64,000 bases of DNA from Octopus vulgaris (Eukaryota). Positions 4,905 through 63,489 of the stretch are shown piece by piece. Positions within the stretch are counted from its first letter, which is position 1; each line of letters begins with the position of its first letter. The DNA is taken from contig OX597818.1 in the NCBI GenBank assembly GCA_951406725.2, positions 91,078,001-91,142,000 on the forward strand, given 5' to 3'. The notes beneath the pieces are model-generated. The model ran no database searches. It was not told where the DNA came from and saw only the letters and a program-made list of their open reading frames with translations. The position numbers were made by a program, and so were the translations under genes.

Positions 4905-5467
4905 CCGACCATGTCTTTGAGACTCAGTCTCAACTCATGGCTCGTCACTTCATCCTACATAGATATCCCCTTTTCACTATCCACACTGCCCTTGCCAGAA
5001 CACTTCCGTGTACCGTGCCTCTGCTCTCTCTCCCCCAGCACCCGTCCTACCGTCACCCTCTCCCGTTTCCCTCATCTACCACCCCACCACTCTACCTCTC
5101 TAACGCACCATTGTCAGAGCCTTCCAGCGACTCCAATCCCTTCCACACACACAGCCCCCTTCCACATACACATGCACGCTCTCACATATACATGCACGCG
5201 CACCTTCGTTTTGGAATAACCACTACTTTATTATCTCCCCTTCCTCCTAGCTCTGTGTGACCCCCCTGTCCGGCATTTGCCATGATAGATCGCTAGCCAA
5301 TAAACCTTTTTTATGTTGTCTCCCTGTTTATTTGTTTGTTCCTTTCTGTCTAAGAGCGTAGGCTCGAAACGTTAAAAGACTTTCTCACATCCCGAGCGTT
5401 AAACTAATACATCCGTTTGCTGTTTACACACCCGTCTTCGTCTTTTTTTTTTGTAAATTCTCACAAT
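4905..5467 (+). mobile_element. Penelope-like retroelement remnant (RT C-terminal fragment plus HHR-like tail)
   Basis: HVFETQSQLMARHFILHRYPLFTIHTALART resembles the PLE F..RGYP...I..A..R linker; HHR-like motif at 5342-5378; tail ends in (TA)n; related tails at ~6841-6890, ~26450-26610 and ~41730-41895. Confidence 0.6.
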
Positions 5468-5751
5468 ATATATATATTCAGTTGAATATGGTACTTAAGT
5501 TAAAGGCAGTTGTAACTGCGATGCTGTTGATAAAACATGTTCTTTCTCTATCTACTTATCCTCTTTGTCGTTTTGGATAAAATGAAAATTATAGAAATGA
5601 ATCCTTCGAATTTAACTAAATTCTATATTTTTATGCAGCTGAGGATTGCTCTACATTTTAAATTGATGTAATGTTTGCATTGTTCAATTAAATGGAGTCG
5701 CATGAAACCATTGTACAACATTACCTCTGGATATCCTTGTTGCTTATTTTG

Positions 5752-5782
<31 letters not shown>

Positions 5783-5786
<4 letters not shown>

Positions 5787-6240
5787 AACACTAAAGGTAA
5801 TGAGGCATATATCTATCAACAACTCTAGAAACAATGAGGCATATAACACTATTATTCAAAACACACCTATGCTTACTAGGGACCCTAAGATGAACGAAAT
5901 TCTTCAAATGACCAAATTCATCAGAAGGGGAAAAACTGAAACCGTTGAAAAGATGTGCGAAATTATAGCCAACCACATGAGAGTCAAGAGTTAAAAATAC
6001 AGGAAACCTAAGTGTTGAACATGTCCCTACCTATCAGATGGTCGCACTTTCTATTTTAAACAAGGAGAAATATTCAAACTTAAAACTGAGTTTATTTGTG
6101 CATCTGAAAACGTAATCTTCTTATCTTGTTCAGGTTGCGGACACAACTATACGGGGCGAACAATAATGTCTCTCAGGCAGAGAACTATCCCAGATAGTGA
6201 ACAAAACTGTTTCTTTCCCAAGATATAGACAAATATCTAA
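5783..6240 (+). mobile_element. Penelope-like GIY-YIG endonuclease region, decayed
   Basis: TCPYLSDG..FKLKTEFICASENVIFLSCSGCGHNYTGRTIMSLRQRT resembles the PLE C.S.NVIY.I.C..C...YIG.T...LR.R motif; stops and frameshifts present. Confidence 0.7.
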
Positions 6241-6692
6241 TTGATTAGAATGGACGCACCTAACCTAAACCACCATAATGAGCTTGATTCGTGGAACCAC
6301 TTCTGCTACTTCTAGGATATTTAATCACGTTCAAGAAAGAGTCGAGAATACGGATTGCAAAAGAAACTTTAGTACGGTAGATACTATGAAAAACTTATAT
6401 AAGCTCTTGGTGCGTATTGGCTTTTTGCCCGAACGCCTGTTTATATCGCTAGCGGGGAAAAACCTCCCCACCAACTTCAGCGGCGGAACCACAAGCTTAT
6501 GTGATTTTGACCTCCCTTTGGAGCATTCTACAGCAAGAGCCTGTATGACATTTTCTCTCATGGTTGCTACCGCAGTAAAGTTTGTTCTAACAGAACATCA
6601 ACATTTAAGTGGGAATAAATATTAGTTCTCGGTATTAATGCTAACTCAGTCGCTTATATATGAAATGTGTGATATATATATATGTAAGTATG

Positions 6693-6843
<151 letters not shown>

Positions 6844-9800
6844 GGAAATTATACGAAAATAAACAAAAGACGAAGGCAGGTGGTGTGTCTGTGTTTGTGT
6901 TTGTGTGTGTCTATGTATGAGTGTGTTATACATTATACACACACACTCATACACTCACTCACTCACACACACACATATACAGATGCAAGTATATGAAACT
7001 AATCTTCTTAAAGAGCTGGAAAGAATGTTTCCATAAGATCCGTTTTGTTTCTGTAGAAAACTTATTGAAACTGTATCTCATCTCTGATACATTTATGATT
7101 GCACTATCATCTGTTTTGTGAAATAATGTGCAGAATAAAAATGATTTGAATGCTCATTAATAATAAAAACAAATATGTAACTATATTATTATTTTTGCCT
7201 TTGTTTTCTTCAGAAATAAGATAATACGTAAGCATGTTTTGGCATAAGTAGGTATCATATTTGTCTTTTATAGTTAAAGAATTATACAAAGAATATGATG
7301 AGAGCATGTTTATCAATGCTTTTATGTCTTTCAGACTTAAATTTCATGCTATTGGAATATATGATGCAGAGCTCAATCCATTTCTCCGTAGAGTTATGTA
7401 TATAAGAAGGAATTCCGTTTTGAATTTCACTGACGTAACACTGATAATTTCTGCGATGGAGGAAATGTAACTCGGAACTACAAACATGGTGAATCGTTTG
7501 TCAATTTTATACAGTTAATACTGCATAAGCATTAATATATAAAAAACAAATGAGGATATGTCAATACCAAGCATTGGCAAACTGTTTCAATAAATGCGCA
7601 GCAGGCGACATGCTTCATCATCTAGGGAACTACTAAAAAACATTTTAAGAAATGATATTTTTTCATGAAATTGAACGTGACATAGAGAGAGAAAGTCCCG
7701 CGAATCGCAGCTTGCCTATAACTGTTCTATTTTGTCGCTTTACTTGCTTAAAAGAACGGCCAAATGTGCTACATGTGTCTGTTTACCGCCTTAAAGTACT
7801 TGAACAAGTCAGCTTTAAATGTAGCTTGGCAGAGAATGAAAATTGGTTGTTCACGACTACGAAAACAGTTGATAATGAAAATTAGACTCAGTTAGTCACA
7901 GATGCTGACAATTAGCATATGTTGTACGTAAATGTAAATGATACAAAAATCAAGGAATATCAATGCTCGTTTATCATGGGGCTTTGGGGGAAAAAGCAAA
8001 AACACAAAACAGTGATAAATGTATCAGTGATAAACAAATAATTTCTACATGCTTGGGAAATAGAAACAAGAGTGTATTCATCTTCATTAAACCAAACTCG
8101 TGGCCCACACCTTTAAATATTTTCAAAATCACCTCTATTTTTTCTTGTAAAGAATGCACTCGACTGTCATTTCTCAGGATCAACCGCCTTTGTGTTCTTC
8201 TGTTTATTGGTCCCATACTGATGGTTGCTGGTTTATATATCCGAACAAAAACTTGCAGCTTCTCTGGACAGTCACCTAAACACAAGCAAAAGTCAGTTAT
8301 ATTCTGTGTAACTGAGAACTGTAGGTAAATGAGGGTGCACGTTTTTCTGCAGTACGAGCAGAATCTTCAATTGATCGCCAGCCCTTGTTATTACAGATCA
8401 ATCCACGATAAGCGCAATATGCTTCACAGTTGATCATACCTTATTATCTCGGATCAGTGATAATCGAGGCTACATGTACTATGAACGGCAAGCATAACCC
8501 AACATAAAATCATACACATAAACAAGCAACATGAATTTCAAATATTCATATTAACATGCTAGAACTGCAACCAAATATGACGAAGTCTCATGCCAATGTC
8601 GTGATATATTAACACGTTATTTTCTCATAAATTATACGAGAAAAGATTACAAGTAGAGGTGGTGTAAAAAGTATACATCTAAGTATATTGCAATACAACG
8701 GAAGCTTAGACTTCACTCGCAAGTGAGGTTAACCAGCCAGCATTTATCATGATCTTGCTAATTCTTTTACATGCCTATAAGTTAACGAACAGACATAGAC
8801 ACTTTCTGAGCTCTCCGACACTTGGCATAGCGGAGCATGGATAATGTGAGAACTGCTGGGGAAGAAAATGTACTGGTGCAAGACTGATATTCATTTTTAG
8901 TTGAGTTCATTAGAGCAATGAAGCAAATTGCTCAAAGGCAAAACAGATTGCCCAGTCCCGAAACGGAACCCTTAATTTTAAGTACGTTAGTTCAATATTT
9001 CAATCAGGAGTACGCGCAAACAACCCTAACGGTATAGAATACCTTTATGGAACGAAAATATTTCACTATCTTGTATGACGTTCACGACAGTATTATACAA
9101 GAAGCAAATTTTTAACGCACAACAAAAGGCCCCGGAAATAAACAATTATACATCAGTAAAGAAGGACAGTTTAGGCCCAGTGGGATGTATATAATCGACG
9201 GAGACCACTGAGTGGGATATATAGATAAATAGTGTAGAGATAGCTGTTATAAATATACACTAAAATTGGATCAGTTACCCGGAAAACTATAATCATAAGG
9301 AGGAGAAATATTCCATAATATTTGGAAATACAATATTCAATGGTATTCTTTAGAAAATAAATTCATCTTTGAGATATATCTGGCGGAGGTAAATTGATGT
9401 CTGGTGTAACTAACTTATTTCCGACGTTAGGCATTATAAGATGTTATTTTTATTTATGTAATTATATTTAGTCCCCATGAATCTTAATATTTATTTCAAG
9501 AACTGTTCTATAATTACGATATGTAAATTGTGGAGCTGCTTAAGTGACTAAAAATTATTTTGGAGTCATGGACAGATAATAACTCTAAAGTTGCTGAAAT
9601 TATTTCGATCAGGCATGGCTGTGTGGTAAGTTTGTTTTCCAACCATATGTTTTCTGGTCCACACCCAGTGCATGGCGCCTTGACTGTCTCCTACTATTAC
9701 CCTGGCCCGACCACAGCCTTGTAAGTGGATTTAACTGAAACTTACTGCAGTTCAATGCTATCTTTGGTTTTATTTTTATATTTTCAGCTATTTCTCACTT

Positions 9801-10664
9801 GATTAATTTGTATTATATTTTTTTATATATAGTTTTATATACTATTTAAGTTATTTATCTTTTATATTTACATTAATTCCTTTTTTTTGTATGTGTGTTT
9901 GTGCCTGTATTTCTCATACCACCATCACTTGATAACCGGTCTTGGTGTGTTCACGTTCACGTAATTTAGCGGTTCCGAAAATGCGATAGATTGAATAATT
10001 ACTAGTCTTTAAAAATCAGTCCTGCAATTGATTTGTTCCACTAAAACCTTTCAAAGGTTTCAAAGCGGTGTCGCGTGTTAATCATCGGTAACTGTCTAAG
10101 AATATCTAGTATGATTTGTTTAATATCCGCGAGGGGAAATAATTCCGGATAAACATGAAATATATTTCCGCAGAGTGTTAAAATCTTTACCTAGATATTT
10201 TGAGTATGATAGTGAAATATTAATCAAAATATGCTTACAATGAAACGATTATGAAGAAATGTACCAATAAATATAAATGTACTTGTCTATGTGTGCATAC
10301 TAATAAACTTTTTCATGACAATAGCAGCTGCGCAACACCAACGGAGACAAAAATCAACAATAACAATAGAAATCTTTTTTATTGAACATGACATGACATT
10401 TTTTAGAGGAGTGGGCTAGTTGATTATATTGACCGCAGCACTTGATAGCTTCTTATTTTATTGACACCTTCCCCTACCAAAAAAAAAAAAAACAGGAAGA
10501 AGAAACGGAGAGGCACAGACAACCCTGGCAGTATTTGAACTCAGAATGTAAAGACGGGGGAAAATGCCGCTAAATATTTTGCCCGGCGGGCGAACGATTT
10601 TGCCAACTCACCACTTTAATAAAAACAACAACAACAGCAATAATGATAATAATAATATATACGA

Positions 10665-10810
10665 AAATGATTGGCAATGCATAGAAATGCACCACCCCAA
10701 GGCTAATATAGAACGACTTTATCTGCCAAAGAAAGCGGAAGACCGTGGACTTTAACAAATGGAACTAACAATGAAGATTGCCACAGTTGGTCTAGACGCT
10801 TATTTGAAAA
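10665..10810 (+). mobile_element. R4/Dong-like RT C-terminal fragment
   Basis: MHHPKANIERLYLPKKAEDRGL resembles HPKA..RLYLPR..GGRGL; next to (AAT)n. Confidence 0.6.
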
Positions 10811-11960
10811 AGATTATATAAAATAAACAAAACGCATTATACACTTCGTCGAAATAATTGACGTTATTTTGTATATAAACTTCTTCATTCCATATTTTTG
10901 TATAAAAAGTCTTTTGTATAAACTCTGCGGATATTTATGGAATTTTCAAATGTATATCCAGCAAAAAGGACAAGTCCTATAGTTTGACAGCACTTGGTAG
11001 CCGGTAACCGTAGACGGGCCTTGGAAAGCACCCTATAATGTTATTACTCAGATAATATTAAATTACATATGTGTGTGTGTGTGTAGATGCATATATGACG
11101 AAATATTATCGTAAAATGCATACACACACACAAACATTCACGAACTTACACGCATACATCTAAAACAATATATATATATATATTGATGTATTTAGGAATG
11201 GTCATTTTGTCAGTTTAGCCAAAACACACGCACTATATATTTGGTGTTACTTTTCATAAATATCCGCAGAGTTTATACAAAAGCCACACGATTTCCCATA
11301 AAAAATCTTGCAAAACAAAAGTATATATATATCTATTTATGTTGTATGTTTGTATGTATGTATGAATATATGTGTATGTGCATATTTAAGGTAATATTAC
11401 GTCTGATGACGTAAGATAATAAGATAATAGGTACATGAAATTAGTGCTCAGGTTGACTTTCTGCCTAAACATCAACTTGAACCGCAATTAAAATGTTACA
11501 GCTTCCAGGAAAATACCAGCCTATCTTACAGCCATAGTGAACATTCCTCAACCGATCGTATATTGATTTCTTGTGTTACAAACTCCTATAACATCCAATT
11601 ATGCCCTGAAGTAATATCAATGCATATATATATAAATGCTATAATCTGTCTTGATATCATTTGTTTGCTTGTCTATATTATTATTCTAATATACACAAAC
11701 ATACATAAGTATACATGTGTGTTTTTATGTGCGAGTTATGACTTGCATGTGTCTGTCTATCTGTGTTATATGTGTGACTAAGTATGTGTAAGTTTTGTAA
11801 TTGTTCTCTGCCTGTGTCCTAAATTTATTAATTAGACTGTTATTGCAGTTCATTGTATATTGTATATATTATTAGGAGTTATAGGATGAAAGTTTTGTGA
11901 CCATGTGTTTCTCATATATTTCGGATTAAACAAGCTAGAAATGAGTTTACGTCTAATGAG

Positions 11961-12000
<40 letters not shown>

Positions 12001-12027
12001 GTATATATATATATGTATATGTATACA

Positions 12028-12061
<34 letters not shown>

Positions 12062-12094
12062 TAATTAGGTATATATGTATATATATAATTAGGT

Positions 12095-12144
<50 letters not shown>

Positions 12145-12177
12145 TCATATATATTTATATATGAATATTTGTGTATG

Positions 12178-12230
<53 letters not shown>

Positions 12231-14653
12231 ATGTGTGTCTTATCGATCTATCTATTTATATAGTTATCGGTATAATCTAGTTTTGTGTATCAGAACTAAT
12301 AACCTGAGGTTTTCACTTGTAAACATGTGAATGACAAGATAAATAATTATCTCAGTGTTGCTTTGATATAAGGACAGACAAAATTTATTTCCCATTTTGC
12401 TTCGATAAAACTGGCGAGACCATGCTTCATTTGATTATTGATGATAAATTTGATGTAATTTAATTAATTCTGTCCATTATGTTTGGGTAGTAATTACACA
12501 CATTCTTAGCAAATTACTGTTACTACTCTGCTTCATAATAAGGTATAGATAACATAGGCCTATGCACATACGAATGTTGTAGATACTCACACACACATGC
12601 GCCCGCCACCCACACATACACACATACACACACGAACACGCATGCACGCACAAACCTAGGCATATAAATTCCCACTCACATACTTACATAATATACGTAT
12701 ATATATACGCATATATATATATATACGAATTGTCAATGTAATCGTGTTGCTTAGTACATTAGTCTGTTTTAGTTACACTATGGCTACTTTCAAGTATTGC
12801 TTTCATTTAGCTATAAAAGAAATGTATTTTACAAGCAATAATATATATATATTAATATAAATATCCATTCACACACATACACACACCCGCATACATCACA
12901 CCTACACATATTCCCACTTATGCTTATGATTACTATTGTCCACCGAAATCAGTCATGTTATAATATGTACACCTTTTACACGCAACTATATGCTCACGGT
13001 TGTCCAGCGAATTTAGCGATGATCTCAATATATACAGCCTTTGATAACTATATAGCTCAATCTATGTTCTGTTTCAATTTTGTTTCTTTAGTACATGTAC
13101 TGCTAATATGATCAACAAGAATATAAAAAGGTAGCATCAAAGTTGACTACCCTTCTGTGTACCACATATTTCAGTCTGAAGAGAATTGATCCAGTGGCCA
13201 GGGTGACTCAAGAGAACTAGAAGCGCATCCTGACAAATTTTCTACGTCAAAAAGTGGCTTCAAGATAATCATTACATCTTGTTTTCTCCTACGGTATACT
13301 CGCCTTACGTTTATATTACCCACATAATTTAGGACGGTGCAAATAATTCACTGTCACTTCGGGTAAAATATCAAACCGACTCGGGTAGATGATTGACAGC
13401 AGATTTAGTTCCTGTCACGACGAGGTCACCACGCCGACTAATCTAAACTTTGTACATAAAATTGTAATGATCTCGTTGATCAAATAAATCATTTTGTTCT
13501 CCTAATGTGCACCTCAAATATGTTGAAAATCCGAACAAACATTTTGGCCGACTGAATCTTTCGTCACTGATTACAATTATTTTTTTAAAATGCTTAATGT
13601 ATCATATAAGTGTAATTTTTGACGATGAATCATAATTTGGTATTCATTTATTCTAGATAAGTTTTGCAAAAGTGTTACAGGTATTCAAATATTGACAATT
13701 TTCAGAATTTTCAGCCAATTAGAAAACTGCACGTTTACTGCCTCTTCGATCATCAAGGGGGAGAGGAACATCGGCATGTCAAACATTAAACTAGGAATAT
13801 ATAAAATAAATTAAATTTCTCGTATCTCCTTTTCTTCCTTGTGCGCACGCGCAGCATCTTTGGTTACTATGGAAACAGTTCTTTGCATCATCTATGCAAC
13901 GTGTGGTGCTTCTTTGCTTCGGTTACTATAGAAATAGAAATTTTCTTCCCGGTGATATGTAAAATACGCACTGCTGATTGAGTAAAATACAAAAATTTTT
14001 CAAATTTCTGCGTTCAAATTCCGCCGAGGATCGATAAATAATGTACCAGTTTCACACTGGGTTGATGTAATCGACTTAATCCCTTTGTCTGTCCTTGATT
14101 TTCCCCTCTATGTTTAGCCCCTTGTGGGTAGTAAAGAAATATATATATATATATATATATATATACGACGGGCTTTCAGTGTCCGTCTACCAAATCCACC
14201 CACAAGGGTTTGGTGGGTCCGAGGCTATAGTAGAAGACACTTGCCCAAGGTGCCACGCAGTAGGACTGAACCCGGAACCATGTGGTTGCTAAGGAAGCTA
14301 CTTATCACACAGTCACTTCTTCGCCTATATTAATATATATTTATATATGTTGAAAGAGTGAATCTCGAAGCAGTGAAGCTATAAATAATGGTAGGTAGAT
14401 ACTGGGTTAGAAATCCTTGGATTCGAAAAGTGCGAGTGAGAATCAAATGTACATCTGTAAACATTTCAGGACTTTGACCATTGGATTGCAGAAATCCTTT
14501 CATTCTCCATTGTAGAAACGTAGTTCTTACCCACTAGAATTATATATTATTGACAAGAGAAGAATTTTAAAATTTCAAGAACGTGCATTCTTTTGTGAAC
14601 AGTGAATCTCGAAACTTTCTGCTCCGACATGTAGTGTTCCAATAATAATAATG

Positions 14654-14709
<56 letters not shown>

Positions 14710-15873
14710 GTATTATTTCACATCCGCGAGATTTCTAAATTGTTTTTGACGTCAACAATGTGTGGGTGTGTTGTGTGTGTGTGTGTGGGTGTGTGTGTAT
14801 GTGTATATGCGTGTGCGTGTGTGGTTCTAATATGATGTAAATGTAATCAAGTCATAAGATATAAACAAACAAAATAAGCCGAGGCCCTCAGCAATCAACA
14901 TTGTCAAGATACACCGTGCCAAATCAACCGTTCTTTTAATCAAACAGTACAAATGGCAATCACTTCCATTATCTCTTTAGCTTTTGTCTATTTTCTGAGG
15001 CAGCGAGAATGTATAGTTCATTGAAGCATTGAAAGACAAAAGCATGTTGGTTCGTTCTAATTTACAATAAAATTACTCGGTATCTTTTTCACTTGTTTTC
15101 TATTTATCTCTGATTAATCACCTGTGATTGGGTAATAGATGGTATGGTAAGCTATAGGTGTCAATAAGCAGAATTTGCTACGATAATAATAGCAAGTCTA
15201 CACAATACAGCTGATCACAATGGCTTCTGTTTAGATGATTTTCACGTATTTATTTATTTATTTTCTGCTGTTATTCATTTGTCTGGGTGTTGTCATTATT
15301 ATGGCGGTGGTGTTGAATGATGTGCTGTCATTTGGTTTGTTGTTAATGTGTTTTATTAGGTGGCACTGTGGCTATTATTTTTTTTTTCTATTTTGTGGTG
15401 CTGGTTGTTATAAAGGACTATGTGTGTTGCACTTGTTGCGTTTGATTCATTCGTTGTTGCGCATGTTGCAATGGTTGCTATTATTTATTATTTAACAATG
15501 GTCAAATTTTGATTGAGCGAATGTGTGATTTAAGGCATTCTGGTTGTAAATATCCTATGTTTTTACATGTCTGGAGGAGATAGTCTTTTGCGTCCTTGTT
15601 TTCACCAGGGAATATGGCGTGATTTTATGTCTTTGTGTGTCTGTGTGTGAGCGGACGGGGGCAATTTTTATGTGCTATATTTAAAGAATGAGAGGATACC
15701 AAGAGATCTACTCATTCGTCATTTTGATGAGTTGTTGCTGTGAATGTTAAATTACAATGAAACTAGAAGTAATTAAAATTTATCGATAATTTTTCTGGCG
15801 ATGCAGTTGAACAGGAAATATCGAAGGTTGATATCACCTACATAGTGATGACGGTGTTGGTTGTAGGTATGTA

Positions 15874-17140
15874 CACAGACATGCAAGAAGTAAGGAGACA
15901 CCTTTGATTTTCAATATCTTTTATTTAATACGCAAAGCGAGCAATTGAAATGTAATCGATAGGTAGGACTACATACTTTAGTATTTATTTGACATTCCCT
16001 TTGCAGTTTTTAATTCAGAAACTATTTTTGGCATTGAACGGATGAGCTTTGTGATTGTCTCTTGTGGAATTTCTACCCACTTTTCACGAAACAATCGAAA
16101 CAATTCATGTTTAGATCCAGGTTTCTGTCGAGGTTTTCGTAAAGCTCTATCTAGTATGCTCCAAATATTTTCAATTGGGCTCATGTCAGGAGATTGGCTC
16201 GGCCAAGGAAGCTTTTTGATCCCATTTTCAGTCAGCCATTGTTGATTCCTTTTCGCTGTGTGGCATGGCGTCCATCATCCATGAATAGAAAATCATTTTC
16301 GTTATGTTATCGTGTGAAAACATAGGAAGTAGCCCTTGCTTATGTATTTCGATGTATATTTTTGAAGTTTATGGTTCCAACACTTTCGATCAGCTCAGAA
16401 CGTCCACTGCTGGTGACAGCTCCCGATACCATTACAGAGATACTACCGTGGGTCACAGTTGGTTGGAGTCGTTTCAAATCAAATTCCTGATTGGGAAGCC
16501 TCCAGACCTAAACATGTCCAATGTAAATTCTGGATTCATTTGAGAAAATTACTCTATCCCAAAATGAACTGGAATTTTTCTGACATCTCCTTAGACCATT
16601 TTTTCTTTTCATGATATTAATTGGTTGAAGGAAAGGTTTTCTTCTAGCTACTAGTCCATAATATCCAAGCTTATGCAGAGATGTAACACACGTTCTTGGA
16701 TTATCTTCTAGCTGTTTTGCAATGTCAGAAGCCTTCGAACGGGATTCGTTTTCCACAATTCTGTTCAAACAGCGAAAGCTTCCGTTCCAAGACCTAGGTC
16801 GGCCGGGACGAGAATCTGTTGATTCTTTTCCTTTGCTTTTGAATTGCACTATAATTCTATTAACAGCAGCAAGTGGAATTTGAAGAATTTCGGCAATTTT
16901 TCGCTGGCTAAAACCAGCCTCAGATTGCCCAACGATACGACGTCTTTCAAAATCTGACAGTTGTGCTGAATTTTTAAGTTTGTAGCATGGTTACTCTTCG
17001 CAAATGTTTAATATAATGGCACCTGGAATGAAAAAAAGAATAAATACATTGTAAATTCTACACCACTGAAAACATATTAAGACGCTTACATCTGAAATTT
17101 TGAAAATTAAATATGTCTATTTACTTCCTGCATGTCTGTG
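15874..17140 (-). mobile_element. Full-length Tc1-like (DD34E) transposon, inactivated
   Basis: ~40-bp TIRs CACAGACATGCA(A/G)GAAGTAA.., TA duplication at 15872-15873 and 17141-17142; HTH LSDFERRRIVG..GFSQRKIA..GRPR; VIFSNES (first D mutated to N); MDDG(A)PCH...WPSQSPDMSPIE with 34-residue spacing; frameshifts. Confidence 0.92.
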
Positions 17141-18574
17141 TACATGATAGTGGTCATTTTAGTGTACATAAGTGAAATTTTGATCCTCAGACCCGTGTGA
17201 AATCTGATAGAAAGTACTTATAATGAAAGATGTTTCAAAGTCCAGGTCGGATATAGTACCCTGTTACCATCGATACCTAACTACGGAATACTAATTTAAA
17301 TTTATATTATCTAGTTGATTTGAAATCCATTATGTCCTACACTATTTTCTTCTACATTCTTGATAAAAGTTCTCTTTGCAATGACACAATCCTCATCTCA
17401 CCATATTATATTTATTATATTTTTTAAAAATTCCAATTTGTTTCTTTTTTGATGATGCGGTCCAACACAAGTTCTCTAAAATTTACATCTGAGCCTGGTG
17501 AAATTTTAATCTCAAATTTTGGCACAAGTCCAGCAATTATGAGAGAGGGGCTAAATCGATTACATCGACCCCAGTGTTCAACTAGTACTCATTTTATCGA
17601 CCCCTAAAGAATGAAAGGCAAAGTCTATCCTGCATTTGAACAGGAATGTACGGATGAATAAAATGCCGCTAAGTATTTTGCCCGGCGTGCTAACAATTTT
17701 GTCTGCCCGCCACCTGATCCTGGTGAAGTATTGAACGTAAAACAGATATGGAGAAATATATATTTTTCATGTGAAATCATTCTAACTTTATCGCCTGTTC
17801 TGTTATAATGCCGCTATACTCGCATAAATAAGATTCATCACATTCTGCCTCGTGTATTTTATTTAATATATACATTATAAACCTTATGGTAGATAACCAA
17901 GTAGACCCCCTATATTAAGGAATAAATTTATTTACACGTATTTTGTAATCAGAACTTAATTAACGAACCATGAGAAAATTGAGTCAATGTAACTCATCGC
18001 CTCATGCATTTAGACCAGGTGGCTACTGAAACCCTCACCTAGTTTTGTACTGCAAGGTAAGCGACTGGATTATATAAAACTTTCGTCGTTAAATAAGTTA
18101 TTGTGGTTTCGATTACATCTTTACTATATAGAATGTGTGGAAAGTAGTTCAGTAAGCTAGCCAGCTAGCCGTTGATGGATACCAGTAAACGATGAGTTAA
18201 TTGCCGGATGTAGACAATAATAGAAGCGTGCAGTCGTTAGATCTATGTTTTTCATATACTACCGATTATATTATAGCTTGACTAGACCATATTGATCATA
18301 GGTCTGCTTGATCATATGAGACCTGAGGCGAAACAACGACTACTACAAGTGTATAACTTTGAAAACAGTAATTATACTACAACTAATAAACAGACACGAC
18401 ATTTTATCTGTCTGTTTCAGAAGTCTTTCAAACGCTTATCATATGTATGAATGTAGGAGTGAATTGTAAAGTTAAATACAAAACGCATATATACATTCAT
18501 ACACGCACATGATCACATACACGTAAATACATACATGTATGGGCTTGGTGATATATACGCGTAATTACACATGC

Positions 18575-18664
<90 letters not shown>

Positions 18665-18915
18665 ATATAATACAAAATGGGACAATAACGCAAAACATCC
18701 AAATAGACGATACAAAAAACACGGATGAGTCATTCGAAGCCTTTAATCTTCAGTCAAGAACCGGATCATCCTCGCAATTTCGGTTAATTAATCCTGAGAT
18801 TGCTCCAATCTGGCCACCCTCAAGGGGAAAACTTAGCTAAGAGTATTAGATTCCTCGGAAAAAGGATCGAATGTGTACAAAACAAGGGCAAAAAACGGAC
18901 GATGTTACACGAATA
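18665..18915. repeat. Unclassified (TA)n-anchored repeat; second copy at ~21870-22145
   Basis: Both copies read atgggacaa.aacgcaaaacatcc...gagattgctccaa.ctggcca...gaaaact.agctaagag.attagat. Confidence 0.65.
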
Positions 18916-19041
18916 TAAATAGAAAAAAAAATATATATAATACGAATATAAATGCAAAACAACAACAACAACAACAACAATAACAATAATAATAATAATA
19001 ATAATGATAATAATAATAATATTAATAATAATGATAATAAC

Positions 19042-19102
<61 letters not shown>

Positions 19103-19107
19103 TATAA

Positions 19108-19171
<64 letters not shown>

Positions 19172-19609
19172 CAGTTTCGAAAAGATATCTTTCATTGTAG
19201 CTTTCGAGTGATACCACCATTGCTGGCTTGGTGGGCAGCCCTATTCCACCCACATCCCACCGCCACGTCCATGAACGGATCACTAGTCTGTCGTACGGTT
19301 ACTCAGTTACAGCTGAGTGGACTGGAGCAATGTGAAATCACAGTGTTTTGCTCAAGAGCATAACGTACCGCCTGTCTGGGGATCGAAACCATTTTCGTGA
19401 GAGCAACATCCTAACCATTGGATCACGAGCCTTCCCACACGCACACACACATACACACACACTCATACATACACACATATTTTCATACATAAACACATAA
19501 TAAACATATACATACACATATATGTGTGTGTGTGCGCGTGTAGATAGCTAGCTAGATTGGCAGACAGACAGACACATACAGAAATAAATAGATAGATATG
19601 TATGTATGC

Positions 19610-19672
<63 letters not shown>

Positions 19673-20146
19673 AAATAGTAATGCAATACGAGAGTATTGC
19701 TTTCCAGTAAAGAATAGCCCGTATTACTATTTTTATTGAAACTTCACTGTTCTCGTTCTGTCAGCGTTTTGGCGTTTCAGTCGAGTGTATTGGCATTGAT
19801 GTGGCAACATCTGAAATGTTGTCGGTTATTTGTTGGCTGATGAAGATAAATCAAGTATATGTGTGCAGACATATTCTTGAGAAATCTGAAACCGGTCCCA
19901 CATTATCCCTTTCTAGGTATTTCATCTTTCAGATGTTCTCCGTGGAGGTAAGACAATTTTTTTCAAGTTTGTTGCACACACGCATTTTTGCTAGTACATA
20001 CGTGATGAAGTTATACATTAGCGTCGTATTTATTACGTTCGCTATTTTCCAGTAAATATCGGTACTTCGTTGTGCCATATATTTACTTCTATGTATATAT
20101 ATATATATATATAATTATTATTTGAGGGAATAAAACCTAAACTTAC

Positions 20147-20243
20147 AAGAAACCTGATGAGCGACTATATTTATATGCAAATGATTTCTCTACTACTATA
20201 ATCATTTGTTAAATATAGTAGCGAAACACGTAGCGTTTTTCTT
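20147..20243 (+). ncRNA. Hammerhead ribozyme motif with long stem II
   Basis: CTGATGA (20154-20160); stem II GCgACTATATTTA/TAAATATAGTaGC plus GCAAATGATT/AATCATTTGT; GAAAC-AC-GTA; imperfect stem I (C-G, bulge, AAGAAA/TTTCTT). Confidence 0.65.
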
Positions 20244-21196
20244 CCTATTTTATATATTACATTATTCTTGTAATTTACTTAATCTTTACTTTTTAATTGT
20301 TATTTTAATTTTAACTTTTCTATTATATGTAATTTTCTAGATGGTGTAATTTAATTATTCATTTTGAATTGATAAAAGGTGTTTCTTTTCTAATATATAT
20401 ATATATATATTGTGTAATAAATAAAATATATGCATGCATACATACATATATGTACGTACCTACATCTACATGTATATATACATGCATATATAATATATAT
20501 ATACGTGAGTACAGGACACCACAAATAGACGCAGAACTCAACGAGAACGAAAACGTAAAAACAAGCATGGAACGAACCTTTTTTTTTACAAAGAAAAAAA
20601 CTGAGTACTAGACAAACTACACAAGGAAAATCCCCTTCATCAGCTGTCCCTAGTTCAACTCCAGCGTGTTTCGAAGGTGAGGACAGAACACGACTCGTGG
20701 AACTAGTCCTTCATGCGAAAAAATTAAAGGAAATTACTTCGCAGAGGAGTAAAAACAAGGAAAGAACAAAATGTGACACAAACAGGACGTAAAAACGATA
20801 CAAATAAAATTACATAATAAAATACAAAATAAAATACAAAATAAAAATACAGTTACAGAAAAATACAATATAAGAAATAAAATCACACAAGAAAACAACC
20901 AAAGAGGGCCTTTTTTGCCTAGACGAGGAGAGATTCAAGGAGCGCAAGAAAACCGTGTGTTTACAGTCAGAAGGCCGCATGCAAAACGAAGTATTTGGCC
21001 GGCTGTGGGAGAGATGAGGAGGAGTGAGAGAGAGAGAGAGATAGAGGAAGACAAACGGCTGCGAGAGAGATGAGGAGGAGTGAGAGTGAGAGAAGGGGCT
21101 GCATATATTTTATTTATTACACTATTGTATGACTGAGCGCCTTCGCATCGATTCGATTCGATTCACTCCGCTTCGTTTCTTCTTCTTCTCCCAGTA

Positions 21197-22820: not shown

Positions 22821-42477
<19,657 letters not shown>

Positions 42478-47459: not shown

Positions 47460-48905
47460 TTATTTAGCACAGAGGGTACACTATACGGACAGACAGAATG
47501 AAAATGAAAATGAAATGTGAGTTTTCATTGCTCACAAGGGGCCAACAAAGAAGGGGTGGCACAATCTGCTTTTAGTCAGATGAACGAATGAATTTTGACT
47601 TATGAATTTTAAAATTTATCAAAATATAATGAAATCGAATGACAGGACACACCGGAAGACATTACGGATGGAGTGGGGAGGCGGGTTCATCTCGGACCCC
47701 AGGAGCCCCGCCGCACCACAGATGCATGTGACTCGTCTTGTATTGCATTCATGAGGTGACATTTATAAGCAACATTCGTGCAACATTCTTCCATCGTCTG
47801 TCAAACATTTTCGCAGACAGGTATTTTCTCCCTAGCCCTATTTTCCTTTTCAGGTGAGAGGTGAAGTAATTCACCAATTTAGGATCAGAAATGAAGATGT
47901 CTGACTTTAACCCAATCAATCTCGTCTACCAAATTACCTCTTTCGCAATTGCTACTACAATGAGAAAACAATTCTTACTTTCTTTCGATAGGAAATCAGG
48001 CGAGTCAACTTTTACTGTTGACTCAGTCAATAGCTGTCCTCTTCCTGCACTTCACAACAGTTGTTCAGCATAAATCCACACGTTTGAAACCTCCGAACAC
48101 TGAACAATAGGGTGTGGGATGGTTTCCCTATCCCGTTCACGTCTTGGACAGGTCGATGGGCCGTAGCCACCACGCCTTGTGAGCTCGTCCCGAACAGGTA
48201 AGGCTCCTCGGTAACATTGCCATGCCAGAGACTTGTCAAAGTTGTCCAATGTATTCGGCCCGAATGTACTTTGAAAAAGACTGACCAGCTGATTATCATC
48301 GAGACCTAGGGTCACATTCCGCCTCTAGCAACCCTCTATAAAAGAATGAGGTGGAACCACTACCACAGGCGCTGCCCAAGCGACGGAATAGCAGGAGAGC
48401 CTTACGACACTCAGTAAACCATGTACCCAACTTCGATCTTCGATAGAACCATGTTTCTCGCCCAGCGAAACTAGTGAACTTGGGAAACATCCGTTTCGCT
48501 AGCGGAGACAACACACGTTCACCATCCAGGTAGAGTCACAGCTGCCTCAACCACAGCGCATCTCTGCGCATCAACAGTCAAGGCTTCCCTATTCCACCCT
48601 TTAACGGTTGTTGGCAGCAAATAGAACATCTCACAAGCGGTTTCGAGCCCTTCCACAAGAAGTGGAAGAGCTGTCTTTCCAGCTTGATCAACCACGAATC
48701 AGGGTAAGGAACGACGGTTAGACGGTAGTTGATGACCGATGCGATGAACACATTGACCACCTCCGCCCTCCCTTTCAGGGATAGCCACCGCCAAGACCAG
48801 TTGTTGCCTATGTGGGTTACCCTGCTCGATACCTCGGCACATTTCTTTTCTATTTGGCGGTCTGACCCAAACCAATCTCCTAGCAGGTTAATCGAACCCT
48901 CCATC
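47460..48905 (-). mobile_element. L1/Tx1-like LINE ORF2 3' fragment
   Basis: LLGDWF..WSWRWLSLKGRAEVVNVFIASVINYRL..FHFLWKG..PLKGGIG and zf-RVT-like LAWQCYRGALPVRD..CPR..ETIPH.IVQC; frameshifted. Confidence 0.85.
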
Positions 48906-51159
48906 CAACTGATTTTTCAGAGCGCCTGAAGATTCGTGACTACAACAACGAAGATAAGGCTAATATCCCGAATATATAGATATGTATATCGATGTATAAT
49001 AATGATATTCCTAATTTCAGAAATTAGCACAATTCACACACACACATACATACACACACATATACACAAACATACATACACACACGCATGCACGCACACA
49101 CACAGACGCACGCACACAAACACACATGCACGTACACAAGCACGCACGTACACACACACGCACATACACGCACAAACACACACGCATACGCACGCTCATA
49201 CGCACAAACTTTTACAGTTTTACCTTTTTAGTATTTTCAATCTGCGTTCAGTGACAATTCTGGGGCACCACAGTTGTTCGGGATAATCTTTTAGTAACTT
49301 TAATTCTTTGGCAAACTTTTGGTCAATGCTGGAGTTTGACGTTGCACTCATTTTCAATTCTTAACCCGAGATACAGTCATCTGGGGTTTGAAATCAAAGT
49401 ATGCCCACTTGTCTCCAAAAACATGTCCACATTCACACAACGTGGATCAGTTTCTGGCCGTAACTCCAGACGGCAAAAGCGGGTCCTTTGGTACTGTGCA
49501 GCGCCAGCCTGCACCAGAATCTTTGCAGACATATAATTCTAATACTAGATGATACTGGAAGCAATTTATCAAATCTGATCTAGGCAGCATCCTCAGTTAA
49601 GTTGATGAAATTCCAAACAGATACAAGTTAATTTTAAAGTTAACGACAGAAAATCATCGCCGGAGGTAGTAGACAGATTCCACTCTATGATTGAATGTAT
49701 ATTTCGTTACTTTTTCTCTTTTTTTTTTACATAACATATTATTATTAACTAAATGTTTTAAACTTATATATAAATAACACACTCTGTGAATAATATGAAA
49801 GCTGTAGTCTAATTGAAGACAGAGAAACGTCTTTCATTGATACACATTGATAAGGTTTTATAAAGAACTGAGAATTAAACGTTCATCTCATGAAGAGGAT
49901 GTATATCACTCACCAGCAACGTTTGTCGTCTCCAAATCTCCTGAAGCAATTTAGAGATAAATGCATTTAGAGATATGGTGATATCACTGAACGACTCGAT
50001 TTACGTCGAACCACAAAAATTAAACATTATATGAGCGGAATTTCAATGATTTGCACTAACTCAGACTTATTACAGAACATGGAAATGAAAGAAAATATTG
50101 AAGTTCTACGAAATGCTGGCGATTCTGATGATAATTTCATTATGTAACTTTTATTTCAACTGATCTATAGATTTACTGTTGAGTTATTATGAATGAATTA
50201 TTGCAATAACGATAGATAATACCATGGTATTGTAAAAATATACTATTAAAATATGTTGCTGTTAGTTTTCTGCGGTGGTTTAGAGTTGTAATTCCAAAAC
50301 CAATAATCTACGATCAATTTTACTACGCGCACGCGCACGTATATGCACGCACACGTATATGCACGCACGCACATACACTCATACACATGCACAGACATGC
50401 ACATGTAGAGAGAGACGCATGCTTAGCTGAGTTTAAAAGATATTTAATGAATAATATGAAAAAACATCATTTATATATATATATGATGCAGCACGGATAT
50501 TTGTCAGTGAACAGGCCGCGGTCTTAAAGCGACGAAAATATTTTGACAAATTAAACTTAAATGTTGAAGTGAATCGAACGGCTTTTGTGTGTTTCTTAAA
50601 TGGCTTACAAACACCTTCCACGCTGCAATTGTTTTTGTTTCAGCACACGATCTCAGATCAAATCACTTGCTATGCAAGTACATCTCCGTAATATATATAT
50701 ATATATATATATATACTAAAATGAATTTTTTGATATTACAAAAAAATATATATAATGTTTTCCTTCATAATTTTCCCAAATTGTTGAGTCCAGTATTGTT
50801 AAAAACTTTCCTAGACTTTTCTTAAATGTTTCTCAATCAACCACCCATAGAGAGAATTCTTTACTATTTTAGAGCTGTGCTAAGATGCCAAAAACAAAAA
50901 CAAAAAAACTAAATAACAGCAACTCAATACCTACTTAACCGAACAGTACATACAGAAATACTTGTGCATTTCCTTTTAATAAGATATGTAACAGCAGTAT
51001 AATGTACGTACAACAATTATATATGAAGTAGGCATTATCACCAACAAAGCAAATGACGCACGCAAATACTATAGTAGAAGATAAATTTAAACATGCTTCA
51101 ATTGTATTCTTCCTTTCATAAATACAGAAAAAATTAATATAACCAGGCTAAATATTTAT

Positions 51160-59393: not shown

Positions 59394-59441
<48 letters not shown>

Positions 59442-59808
59442 ATAATTATGTTGAAGGAGAAAGTTGAAATAGGACTTTTCTCTTGCATACTGAATGAATG
59501 TTTAAACATTGCGAAGTTACCGAAGCTCCCTAAATACACGCGATTGAAAGCGGGCTAGTGAAAAGATATTTAGAAAAAGACACCAGCTTAATTGCGAATT
59601 ATGTATTTTCAAGATTAAAATCTTAAATAGATTTTCTGATCATCATGTGAAAATATATGAACAGGTGTTAGTACATACCCATAACAAAGCGAATCTGCAT
59701 GTCTATGCACAGATTTAAACTTTCTCACGAAGATCACATGCATTTATATCAAAATCCGACCGCTGAAAATGTGGATTTTTGATGGGGAGTAAAAATGTTA
59801 TACTAATA

Positions 59809-60207: not shown

Positions 60208-60632
60208 TTTCATATATTTATATATTTTCCTAAAATAAGGATAAAAATCACTTAAATGATAATTATCAGGTAGTCAGCATTAAAATAAAGAATTTATATA
60301 TTAATTTAATTTTTACACATAAGTACATGTCATATATGGAATAATTATAAACAGGACCGATTTTAGCCATTTCTCCGCAGAGTGAAACAACTTTAATCAA
60401 TTTCGAACCTTATTGAGTTCTCATCAAATGAGGCAACGTCATTTTGACGGTCTCCAGAGAGACAACCAACCAAACTGTTTATATACTTAACAAATACGGA
60501 AGTTACTTTATGAAGGAAACACTAATTTGGATACCGAAAGTGATTAACACTCTATATATACCAGCGGCCTGTCAGCAGGGATCTTAGTCCACACAGTATC
60601 AAGGTATGATATAATAAACATGTAACACATGG

Positions 60633-60921
60633 TATAATTATATTAAGGGAGAAAGTTGAATCGTGACCTTTCCCCTCCATACTGAATGTCTAAACATTAT
60701 GAGGCTATCGTGAAAAACGCCATAAATACATGCGATTAAAAGCCGGTTAGTGAGGAGATATTAAAAAAAAAGACACCACATTAATTAAGAATTAGCTAAT
60801 TAGCTAATTTCAAGATTAAAATCTTAAATAGTTTTTCTTCCCACCAACAGCGTTATGCATGTTTATACATTCAGTATGGAGGAGAGAATTCATGCTCCGA
60901 CTTTCTCTCTTAATATAATTA
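60633..60921. mobile_element. MITE-like element with ~60-bp degenerate TIRs; partial second copy at 59441-59636
   Basis: 60633-60695 is the reverse complement of 60860-60921; 59441-59636 aligns to 60633-60835. Confidence 0.55.
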
Positions 60922-61144
60922 TATATATATATATGCATACATACATATGAATCTTACTATTTGAAAACGATTGTGCCCACTTAATATGTTTCGCTATGCA
61001 GAAAATCACAGCAGTAAAAAACAGCACGGTTGGAGGTACAACCATATGGTGTTGCAACCGTGCGTTGGTGCGGATAATTGAAATTAGAACATTATTGGTG
61101 AATTGAAGAAATGGAGCTGAACGCAGATTGAACAGAAATCGTTT

Positions 61145-61238
61145 TATTTCATTCTACACGTGTTTCGAAAGGCACAAATTACCAAAATCCGATGGAATAA
61201 TGGGACCATATTGTGTCTTTCTCTTCAGGAAGAAAATA
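61145..61238 (-). ncRNA. Type I hammerhead ribozyme
   Basis: Minus strand: stem I TATTTTCTTC/GAATGAAATA (9/10 pairs), CTGAAGA, stem II GAAAGaCACAA/TTGTGcCTTTC, GAAA, palindromic stem III ACACGTGT, GUA triplet (cleavage between 61155 and 61154). Confidence 0.8.
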
Positions 61239-61322
61239 GGAAATCCGTTGGAAAAACAAAAACAGAACAGAGGCAGAGCAAAAACAAATCGAACTATGCT
61301 CCTAAGAGCCCATGGCGAAACT

Positions 61323-61406
61323 CTGAAGAGAAAGACACAATATGGTCCCATTATTCCATCGGATTTTGGTAATTTGTGCCTTTCGAAACACGTGTAGAAT
61401 GAAATA
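61323..61406 (+). ncRNA. Inverted copy of the same hammerhead, lacking its stem I 5' arm
   Basis: CTGAAGA-stem II-GAAACACGTGTA-GAATGAAATA identical to the minus copy; the inversion breakpoint falls just 5' of the core. Confidence 0.6.
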
Positions 61407-61461
61407 AAACGATTTCTGTCCAATCTGCGTTCAGCTCCATTTCTTCAATTCACCAATAATG

Positions 61462-61508
<47 letters not shown>

Positions 61509-63489
61509 TACATACATATGAATCTTACTATTTGAAAACGATTGTGCCCACTTAATATGTTTCGCTATGCAGAAACTATCGTACATAAGAAGTTCACACC
61601 TTGTAAACCAAATCAAGGCTAGGGCAAAAACACTAAATATGCATTAAGGAAAAGAACTTCAAACAAGTGCATTAGAACGATATTATCTGTTTAGACTCAT
61701 AGAAAGGAGAAACAACCTAAATTAAATCAAAGGAAAATCTTTTCATTAGGAATGTATGATAGAATATCATGTATAGACCAAGACATTACTTGACCAGAAA
61801 GGAAATATATTGTCGTTGCCCTGGTGAAAAGGGGTAAAAAAAATAATAACTCGTTCTTAAGAACTTACATACTTCTGAATACTAGTTTAAAGCAGCCTGG
61901 AGTTTTCACAAAATGTAGTCTCTGAAAAAATCTTGTATTGTATAAATGGAAATTACTATAGCTACGATACTAATCCGTTACACTAATAACTGTTTTTAGA
62001 TTTACGTACGTATTAATATCTTTACACATCAGGCCTATAGATGCATTTATCTCCCTGCTTGCTGCTCGCTAATCTTTTCTGAATGTATTTTACGTGTGGA
62101 ACACATGTTCTTTTACTTCCTTTTAATCCTCCCCTTTACGTTTTTAATATACCTAACGGATTTTATCATTTTACGTTTTCCCATTCTGTTCTTTCACTCT
62201 TCTTGTTTTCTTTCTTGTCTTTTATTTTGCTTTTTTGTCCCCACTATAACACCTACAGAGAAATAACATACATTTTACTTTTATAGAAATATACGCCTCT
62301 TCCAATGGAAACTAAATCCCCACTAGTTTCATTTTGCCTTTTAATTTCTAATTACGATTTCCTTCTCTGTGTGTGGAAGATAAGTCAGTTGATATAGTGA
62401 TCAAATACCATATGATTTGTAAGTTCAAAAACAAGCAACCGTCCTATGGAGTGTTTGGACAAGGATCTATGTTATTCGCCTTTCATTCACCAAGCTTTGA
62501 CGAATAAAGTAACCCCCCGCTGCGACTTCTATTTGCTATTGTTCTCATCATTATTGCTGCTGCTACTGCCGTTTTTGTTGTTTTTGTTGTTGTTATTAAT
62601 AACATATCTATATTTTCCCCTAAAATAATAGAATATTCCATTGAAAATTAACAATCAGAGAGGGCTCGTGAAAGGAACAGTTCTGTAAGTACCATTTATG
62701 CTTCAACAATCTCTTCTTTTCGTCGATTACATTTATATTATATACTAACATTTACGTCTTCCTTTCATTTTGCATTTACAAATTTATTTTATGCTGACCG
62801 GAGGACATTACTGTCTGCTAAATGATAGATGCACACGAACTCAGTAAGGAAATGTTACCAGAACATTCACTCTAATAGAAGCAGCAACCAAATATCTCTA
62901 CTTTAATTCATATACCATAGATTAAAAGATAAGCCAATGGCACAGTGGGTAATTTTGTGTTTGATAATGTCATAGTAAAAAAAGAAGCGATTATGAAGAC
63001 ACAGATGAATTTGTTTATAGGTCTGTTCAGGAAACTCTGACCAAAAGTTAAACAAAAAGAATAATAATTCTATCTAACTAAAGGCACAAAGCTAAAATTA
63101 ATGGGAGGAGGCCTTTCGATTACATCAACCATAGTGCTCAACTGGCGCTTACTCTATCAAACCTGAAAGAACGTAAATTAAAGACGACCTCGGCAGAAAT
63201 TAAATTCGGAATAAAAAGACGGAACAAATTGCGCTAAGCACCATTTCTATTTTAAGCACCCTTTTATTTTATTTTATTTTAAACACAAGGCAGGAAATTT
63301 TGGCTCGCTGCTAAAACAATAATAGTGATGATAATGGTTTCAAATTTTGGCACAGGAACAGCAGTTTCGGGGGAGGGAATAATTCGATTAGATCGACCTC
63401 AGTGCTCAAATAGTACTGAGTTTCTTGACTGCGAAAGGATGAAGGTAAAGTCGATCTCGGTGGAATTTGAACTCAGAACGTAAAGACAA

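Follow-up and report, generated by a model that had tools for sequence, protein, structure and literature searches.

An inverted double-hammerhead insertion with a long target duplication, probably a Penelope-type insertion primed from two nicks

The window analysed here, the whole stretch of 64,000 nucleotides, is AT-rich and microsatellite-rich animal DNA. Near its right end lies an insert with two hammerhead motifs in opposite orientation, enclosed by two identical segments. Does the duplicated segment belong to the host or to the element, and by what kind of event was the insert made? The insertion unit of Penelope-like elements (PLEs) comprises an inverted truncated copy, a one-sided tail and a target duplication (PMC3846280, PMC8557442), and how PLEs make these three is given as an unresolved question (PMC8557442). 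The insert is most likely a tidy example of this known pattern, the long duplication being its only unusual feature.

Anatomy of the insertion

The insert is flanked by an exact 85-bp direct repeat (60920-61004 and 61491-61575), of which 15 bp belong to a TA run and the remaining 70 bp do not (Table 1). The insert between the two copies, 459 bases long, consists of two head-to-head pieces of a very abundant repeat that carries the hammerhead. The inverted arms (61088-61228 and 61323-61463) are 141 bp long with a single mismatch (61131/61420); they reach 144 bp with two mismatches when extended into the TA run, and a 94-bp spacer separates them. On the left side only, the sequence continues for 83 bp beyond the arm (61005-61087). 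The initial annotation had described a TA run and 70 bp on either side of an insert with these arms and this spacer, and remeasurement returned the same layout exactly. The inverted copy is 5'-truncated and adjacent to the other head to head, a PLE feature. Head-to-tail tandem monomers, a retrozyme feature, are absent from the locus, where the two motifs are inverted and not tandem.

The TA runs are unequal (15 nt on the left, 43 nt on the right), a detail absent from the initial annotation, so that the right run (61463-61505) exceeds that of the left target copy by 28 nt. This excess could come from slippage at priming, from later growth or from assembly noise.

Table 1. Coordinates of the features of the insert and its flanks (window positions)
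Feature	Position	Strand	Basis
Left duplicated copy of the likely host target, 15 bp TA + 70 bp	60920..61004	+	exact match, single-copy depth
Long arm, element +1 (61322) to +318 (61005)	61005..61322	-	depth, loose ends
One-sided 'tail', 83 nt, between two putative priming sites	61005..61087	-	arm limits; analogy with PLE passages (PMC11167929, PMC3846280)
Hairpin inside the 83-nt tail	about 61024-61064	-	fold
Full type I hammerhead motif (helix III palindromic; predicted to act as a dimer)	61145..61238	-	descriptor, fold
Promoter-like start with Inr/DPE spacing	61291..61322	-	motif spacing
Short inverted arm, element +95 to +235	61323..61463	+	its hammerhead lacks the 5' strand of helix I
TA run, 43 nt, putative priming end of the short arm	61463..61505	.	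sequence
Right duplicated copy of the likely host target	61491..61575	+	exact match to left copy

Exact direct repeats of at least 40 nt outside microsatellites are rare in the window. Besides the 85-bp pair there is one, at 23546 (+190), of about 42 nt with its copies 190 bp apart. A diverged repeat of about 210 bp occurs in two copies 1.2 kb apart (59440-59650 and 60632-60840; mean column identity 82% where they align), and a further, inverted piece lies at 60859-60923, just left of the insert.

Host target and element family

Contigs from four public DNA runs were aligned to positions 60350-61462. Depth over 60958-60995 was 39, 18, 48 and 46 in the four runs, like that of nearby unique contigs, while the bins from 60996 to 61451 ranged from 29,078 to 1,095,104 in all four. 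The ratio between insert and 70-bp segment, roughly 5,000-21,000, is a contrast in depth and not a copy number. Because the 70 bp stand at single-copy depth against the very high depth of the insert, they are likely host target sequence and not part of the element consensus. The depth of all four runs thus supports the target status first proposed for this segment. The converse, a 70-bp segment belonging to the element, was rejected on the same depth.

Family sequence continues past both 61005 and 61322 in the loose ends of contigs, and these two positions are therefore breakpoints of the present copy. Both arms carry the same subfamily variant (61194/61357). A (TA)n run is joined at 61088 in five contigs of run X5 and one of run X2; these joints fit a recurrent priming site at +235 and could include the present locus. 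One end of the duplicated repeat lies in a TA run, in keeping with the AT-rich or microsatellite targets and variable target duplications of PLEs.

Two other structural models were discarded. A MITE-like unit moving as a whole is ruled out, since the family continues past 61322 and its other joints differ. Two separate insertions are also ruled out, since a single duplication spans both arms.

Hammerhead motifs

The minus-strand motif has a helix I with 9 of 10 pairs, the core CUGAAGA at 61228-61222 followed further on by GAAA, a 5-bp helix II at the base of a longer, irregular hairpin, a palindromic helix III (ACACGUGU) and the cleavage triplet GUA with A17 at 61155, after which the cut is predicted. 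By sequence and fold, the type I core with all three helices is present in the minus copy only; a type I hammerhead with palindromic helix III is a feature of PLE terminal repeats. The plus copy lacks helix I: no more than 4 of its 10 pairs can form with the 10 nt that precede the core. The initial annotation was correct on both motifs: the minus copy is complete in helix I, helix III and GUA, and the plus copy begins exactly at the C of CUGAAGA.

A strict descriptor returned two full hammerheads in the 64 kb versus one match in eight block-shuffled windows, so that the motif is not attributable to chance. The ribozyme call is based on this descriptor and not on Rfam, which gave no match in the 64 kb at the gathering score and, at E<=10, 15 matches with no hammerhead among them. 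The miRNA and RUF21 matches at the latter threshold, of hairpin or microsatellite kind, were rejected as artefacts that the inverted repeat produces. When metagenome and viral contigs were scanned for the pattern of the hammerhead core, neither set held a matching locus.

Left unconstrained, the minus hammerhead region folds no better than its shuffles (z -0.67), and helix I has a predicted probability of zero in the unconstrained 318-nt RNA. When the core helices only are considered, the dimer fold reaches -16.0 kcal/mol vs -0.9 for two monomers; cleavage by the complete hammerhead is thus predicted to depend on a partner copy. In a read-through RNA, folding gives a 141-bp duplex of about -284 kcal/mol and both hammerhead folds are predicted to be lost; an active ribozyme within this hairpin was rejected, the predicted helix probabilities being 0. 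Because a transcript from +1 would be single-sense, double-stranded RNA would require read-through from a host or other outside promoter.

Inversion junction and putative transcription start

On the minus strand, the long arm begins at 61322 with A+1-G-T-T, followed by G+24 at 61299 and a DPE-type pentamer (+28..+32) at 61295-61291. The initiator form used in the pattern scan is that of the fly. The spacing rule comes from an insect paper (PMC4461909), and an internal promoter of Inr/DPE type is described for Penelope of D. virilis (PMC2377424). This pattern has a single match in the 318-nt arm, exactly at the junction base, with a window background of 34 matches in 128,000 positions (2.7e-4 per position), nine of them with G+24; the rule is of insect origin and four variants of the pattern were tried. 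The family base at -1 is C, which completes the initiator at six of the seven positions of YYANWYY. In its motif spacing the arm agrees with a putative internal TATA-less promoter, of the kind expected in a PLE pLTR. Because the long arm stops at this Inr/DPE-spaced start, the junction was probably set by the 5' end of the RNA and not by the ribozyme core.

The present copy has G immediately before +1, unlike the C of the family. This G may be the partner of C3, a cap-derived G or both, and a terminal G at the junction is expected about once in five by chance. An untemplated G at the 5' end is an accepted cap signature for L1 and SVA (PMC4859970, PMC9341517). In the same way, the first base of the plus arm may be either C3 or a cap-templated base.

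Six other antisense-to-sense joints of the family occur among the matches listed (5 in the 15 rows listed of 46 in the first table of matches, and one more in the 12 listed of 57 in the second), with sides of 23-26 nt where given, and show that head-to-head products are recurrent in the family. They restart at +134, +143, +144, +148, +148 and +207 and stop at +19, +49, +130, +133, +138 and +164; none of the six among the matches listed restarts at C3 (+95), and none stops at +1. The listed loose ends at 61322 agree at 0.96-0.99. Neither the listed joints nor these loose ends support run-off at the start site as a common outcome in the family. Template switching at the ribozyme core, proposed from the first look at the sequence, does not stand as a rule: 0 of the 6 other listed joints restart at C3, and on its other side the present junction falls on a likely transcription start, so that the C could also have its origin in the cap.

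Age and empty allele

A single depth value explains the bins 60920-60957 and 60958-60995 in all four runs, and none of the four provides, in the final 30 bp of the duplication, the additional junction contig that a filled allele should give (the contig filter drops some records, and X1 was read to about 80% and X4 to about 76%). This suggests that the insert is absent from the four sequenced animals, which would carry the empty allele. In X4, the depth of the 70 bp is about 1.5 times that of the left flank contig (48 against roughly 33), a ratio that would also suit a heterozygote. The 70-bp copies are identical and the 141-bp arms differ at a single base, which bounds divergence at about 2.6%. 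The young age initially suggested is supported by these counts, and there is a fair case that the insertion is young and probably polymorphic.

Proposed insertion and alternative explanations

The insert is probably the product of a two-primer Penelope-type insertion, a single recent event in which both strands were nicked 70-85 bp apart. The anatomy, the contrast in copy number and the continuation of the family past both ends are observed directly, and the steps are reconstructed from this one locus. Each nicked end of the target would prime reverse transcription. The top-strand end at 61004 would prime at element +318 and copy 318 nt to the 5' end of the RNA, and the bottom-strand end, inside the TA run, would prime at +235 and copy about 141 nt. 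The 3' ends of the two cDNAs would then be joined without longer homology, perhaps via one C-G pair, had the cap been copied, and retention of both overhangs would leave the long duplication. At the left junction the last three A's of the target match the family (six bases with one G bulged); at the right junction one exact base matches (three of four overall). In vitro, the purified PLE protein of Anolis cuts both strands of its preferably AT-rich target and extends each of them; its template is uncut RNA, on which synthesis starts at two internal sites, and these delimit the tail (PMC11167929). By analogy, an uncut RNA template would match the intact hammerheads in both arms.

A more detailed version of the two-primer insertion is offered tentatively and with considerable doubt. 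The locus may represent a PLE finishing intermediate, in which independent cDNAs start from nicks at most 85 bp apart, one of them runs off the capped 5' end, a cap-templated C serves as a one-base splint and TA is added reiteratively. One nick would be pulled to the nearest TA run, and this would set the length of the duplication. If this frozen intermediate is real, thousands of genome copies would let the rule be read directly.

A single priming followed by a template switch at the hammerhead core is unlikely. The cDNA would be copied to +1 and then jump onto itself or onto another cDNA; helix I, paired in trans in a dimer, would expose C3 or stall the enzyme there, and the copy would end at the TA run. 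The exact start of the plus arm at C3, the base beside helix I, and the subfamily variant common to both arms speak for such a switch. However, the other listed joints restart elsewhere, the outer end of the short arm is where several contigs pass into (TA)n, which is expected of a priming site, and the arms differ at one base. Moreover, in vitro a PLE extends both strands, and core mutants leave the insertion products unchanged (PMC11167929). Also improbable, and more so, is an origin of the duplication in repair synthesis by the host, at a break already present within or next to the TA run, with capture of element cDNA in place of staggered nicks. The 28 extra TA bases on one side and a length far above the 8-10 bp of rotifer PLEs (PMC3846280) would suit repair, but the junctions are clean, with neither deletion nor filler, TA runs are known PLE targets, and a published model lets the length of PLE duplications vary with nick distance (PMC8557442). 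We regard as very improbable that a chimeric or fold-back read, or a mis-join of haplotypes, made both insert and duplication. It is true that no junction contig was found in any of the four runs and that inverted PLE structures trouble assemblies (PMC8557442). However, asymmetric arms with a spacer, microhomology at the outer junction on both sides, a promoter-like junction base and an outer end common to other contigs are all unlike read chimeras, and absence from other individuals is expected of a polymorphic insertion.

A different question, whose probability is independent of those given to the insertion mechanisms, is the identity of the family. Instead of the pLTR of an ORF-bearing PLE, it could be a tandem retrozyme, non-autonomous and dependent on a PLE enzyme acting in trans, the insertion mechanism being the same; we hold this to be possible, if not the expected outcome. 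The lack of a linked ORF, the long helix I and the very high copy number point in this direction. The hammerheads of retrozymes are of type I and their target duplications are larger (PMC7229834), and a preprint derives them from PLE pLTRs (10.64898/2026.07.22.740005). Against this, no tandem monomer exists at the locus, the loose-end sequence upstream of +1 does not join up with that downstream of +318, and a Pol II-type start upstream of the hammerhead suits a pLTR.

Comparison with known elements

The inverted double-hammerhead layout is already published (PMC4209133, PMC3846280, PMC8557442). Cervera and de la Pena (2014) report 'dual min-HHRs ~100-700 bp apart in opposite strands' in Schistosoma (PMC4209133). 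The initial annotation had called the target duplication unusually long, and it is indeed long against the PLE values in the passages cited, but the layout that it flanks is not special. In Pen2a of Adineta vaga (PMC3846280) the same assembly is found, an inverted 5'-truncated copy head to head with a longer one, a one-sided tail, a duplication and a microsatellite target; however, the present insert has no ORF between the repeats and no palindrome at the inversion point. Its tail of 83 nt compares with 30-40 in Pen2a, and its duplication of 70-85 bp with 8-10 bp in the rotifer (PMC3846280), both exceeding the published values. A PLE duplication of at least 70 bp occurs in none of the literature passages searched, and supplements and subscription papers may hold such values. 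Among LINEs, target duplications reach 126 bp in R9 and a median of 900 bp in Dualen, where distant nicks give long duplications (PMC9977147), these being LINEs and not PLEs.

The hammerhead resembles the minimal type I motifs of PLEs (PMC4209133) in its type I order, small palindromic helix III and expected dimer. It differs from them in the longer helix I (9/10), the lack of an extra base between the core and helix II and the long irregular extension of helix II. In the in vitro work of Frangieh et al. (2024) on Poseidon of Anolis carolinensis (PMC11167929), priming is internal, with two sites downstream of the hammerhead, both strands are extended, the target is AT-rich and uncut RNA is the template, all as proposed here. 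Poseidon primes without target homology, whereas the present junctions show 1-3 nt of exact microhomology and start sites 83 nt apart; furthermore no ORF starts in helix II here, where there is a 21-codon frame only. The non-LTR retrozymes of metazoans (PMC7229834) are likewise non-coding, of high copy number and equipped with type I hammerheads, but as tandem monomers arranged head to tail, whereas the present motifs are inverted.

The inverted segment of a twin-primed L1 is not known to duplicate the remaining segment; here 141 bp are present twice. The likeness to the present locus lies in a second priming that gives an inversion (PMC4859970).

By itself the locus matters little, as a young, probably polymorphic non-coding stub of a published pattern. 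Its value is that of a data point on how PLEs make inverted repeats, tails and duplications: it agrees with the priming on both strands observed in vitro, extends the range of duplication lengths to 70-85 bp and places one breakpoint at a likely transcription start. A table of the whole family would gain from four of its features, namely the length of the duplication, the 83-nt tail, the breakpoint at the start site and the additional TA bases.

Coding capacity

The insert copy has no ORF and is a dead, non-coding stub. No ORF starts in helix II of the hammerhead, which holds only a 21-codon frame. Pfam searches with 11 frames (four from the insert, seven from elsewhere in the window) gave no RT or GIY-YIG domain, and the four insert frames matched no family at all. 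A protein search with a 49-aa frame, restricted to longer proteins and weak as evidence, retained 0 of 10 candidates. We infer the enzyme, no RT or GIY-YIG ORF being linked to the family. The insertion works like a PLE insertion, and an autonomous PLE family is a candidate source. The Penelope-type inverted insertion first proposed is supported.

Elsewhere in the window, a 160-aa fragment of a Tc1/mariner transposase lies at 16508-16990 on the minus strand (HTH_SB, E 1e-5; HTH_Tnp_Tc3_2, E 3e-4; both matches below the curated cut-offs). A 112-aa frame at 48578-48916 (minus strand) has no Pfam match and resembles a fragment of the region downstream of a LINE RT.

Other hammerhead-like sites in the window

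A third hammerhead-like core, CUGAUGA with a 4-bp helix II and a palindromic helix III, lies between TA runs at 19837-19900 (plus strand); it passed the loose scan and failed the strict one. At 29058-29217, directly after a TA run, two inverted arms of 75 bp, 79% complementary, are separated by 10 nt. A second complete type I hammerhead, unrelated to that of the insert, is found at 30217-30300 on the plus strand, with the core CUGACGA and a palindromic helix III. It sits in a partial tandem delimited by 78-bp direct repeats (29840-29917 and 30391-30468) that are 92% alike, 551 bp apart and beside TA runs. The whole (29840-30468) looks like an older partial tandem of PLE type.
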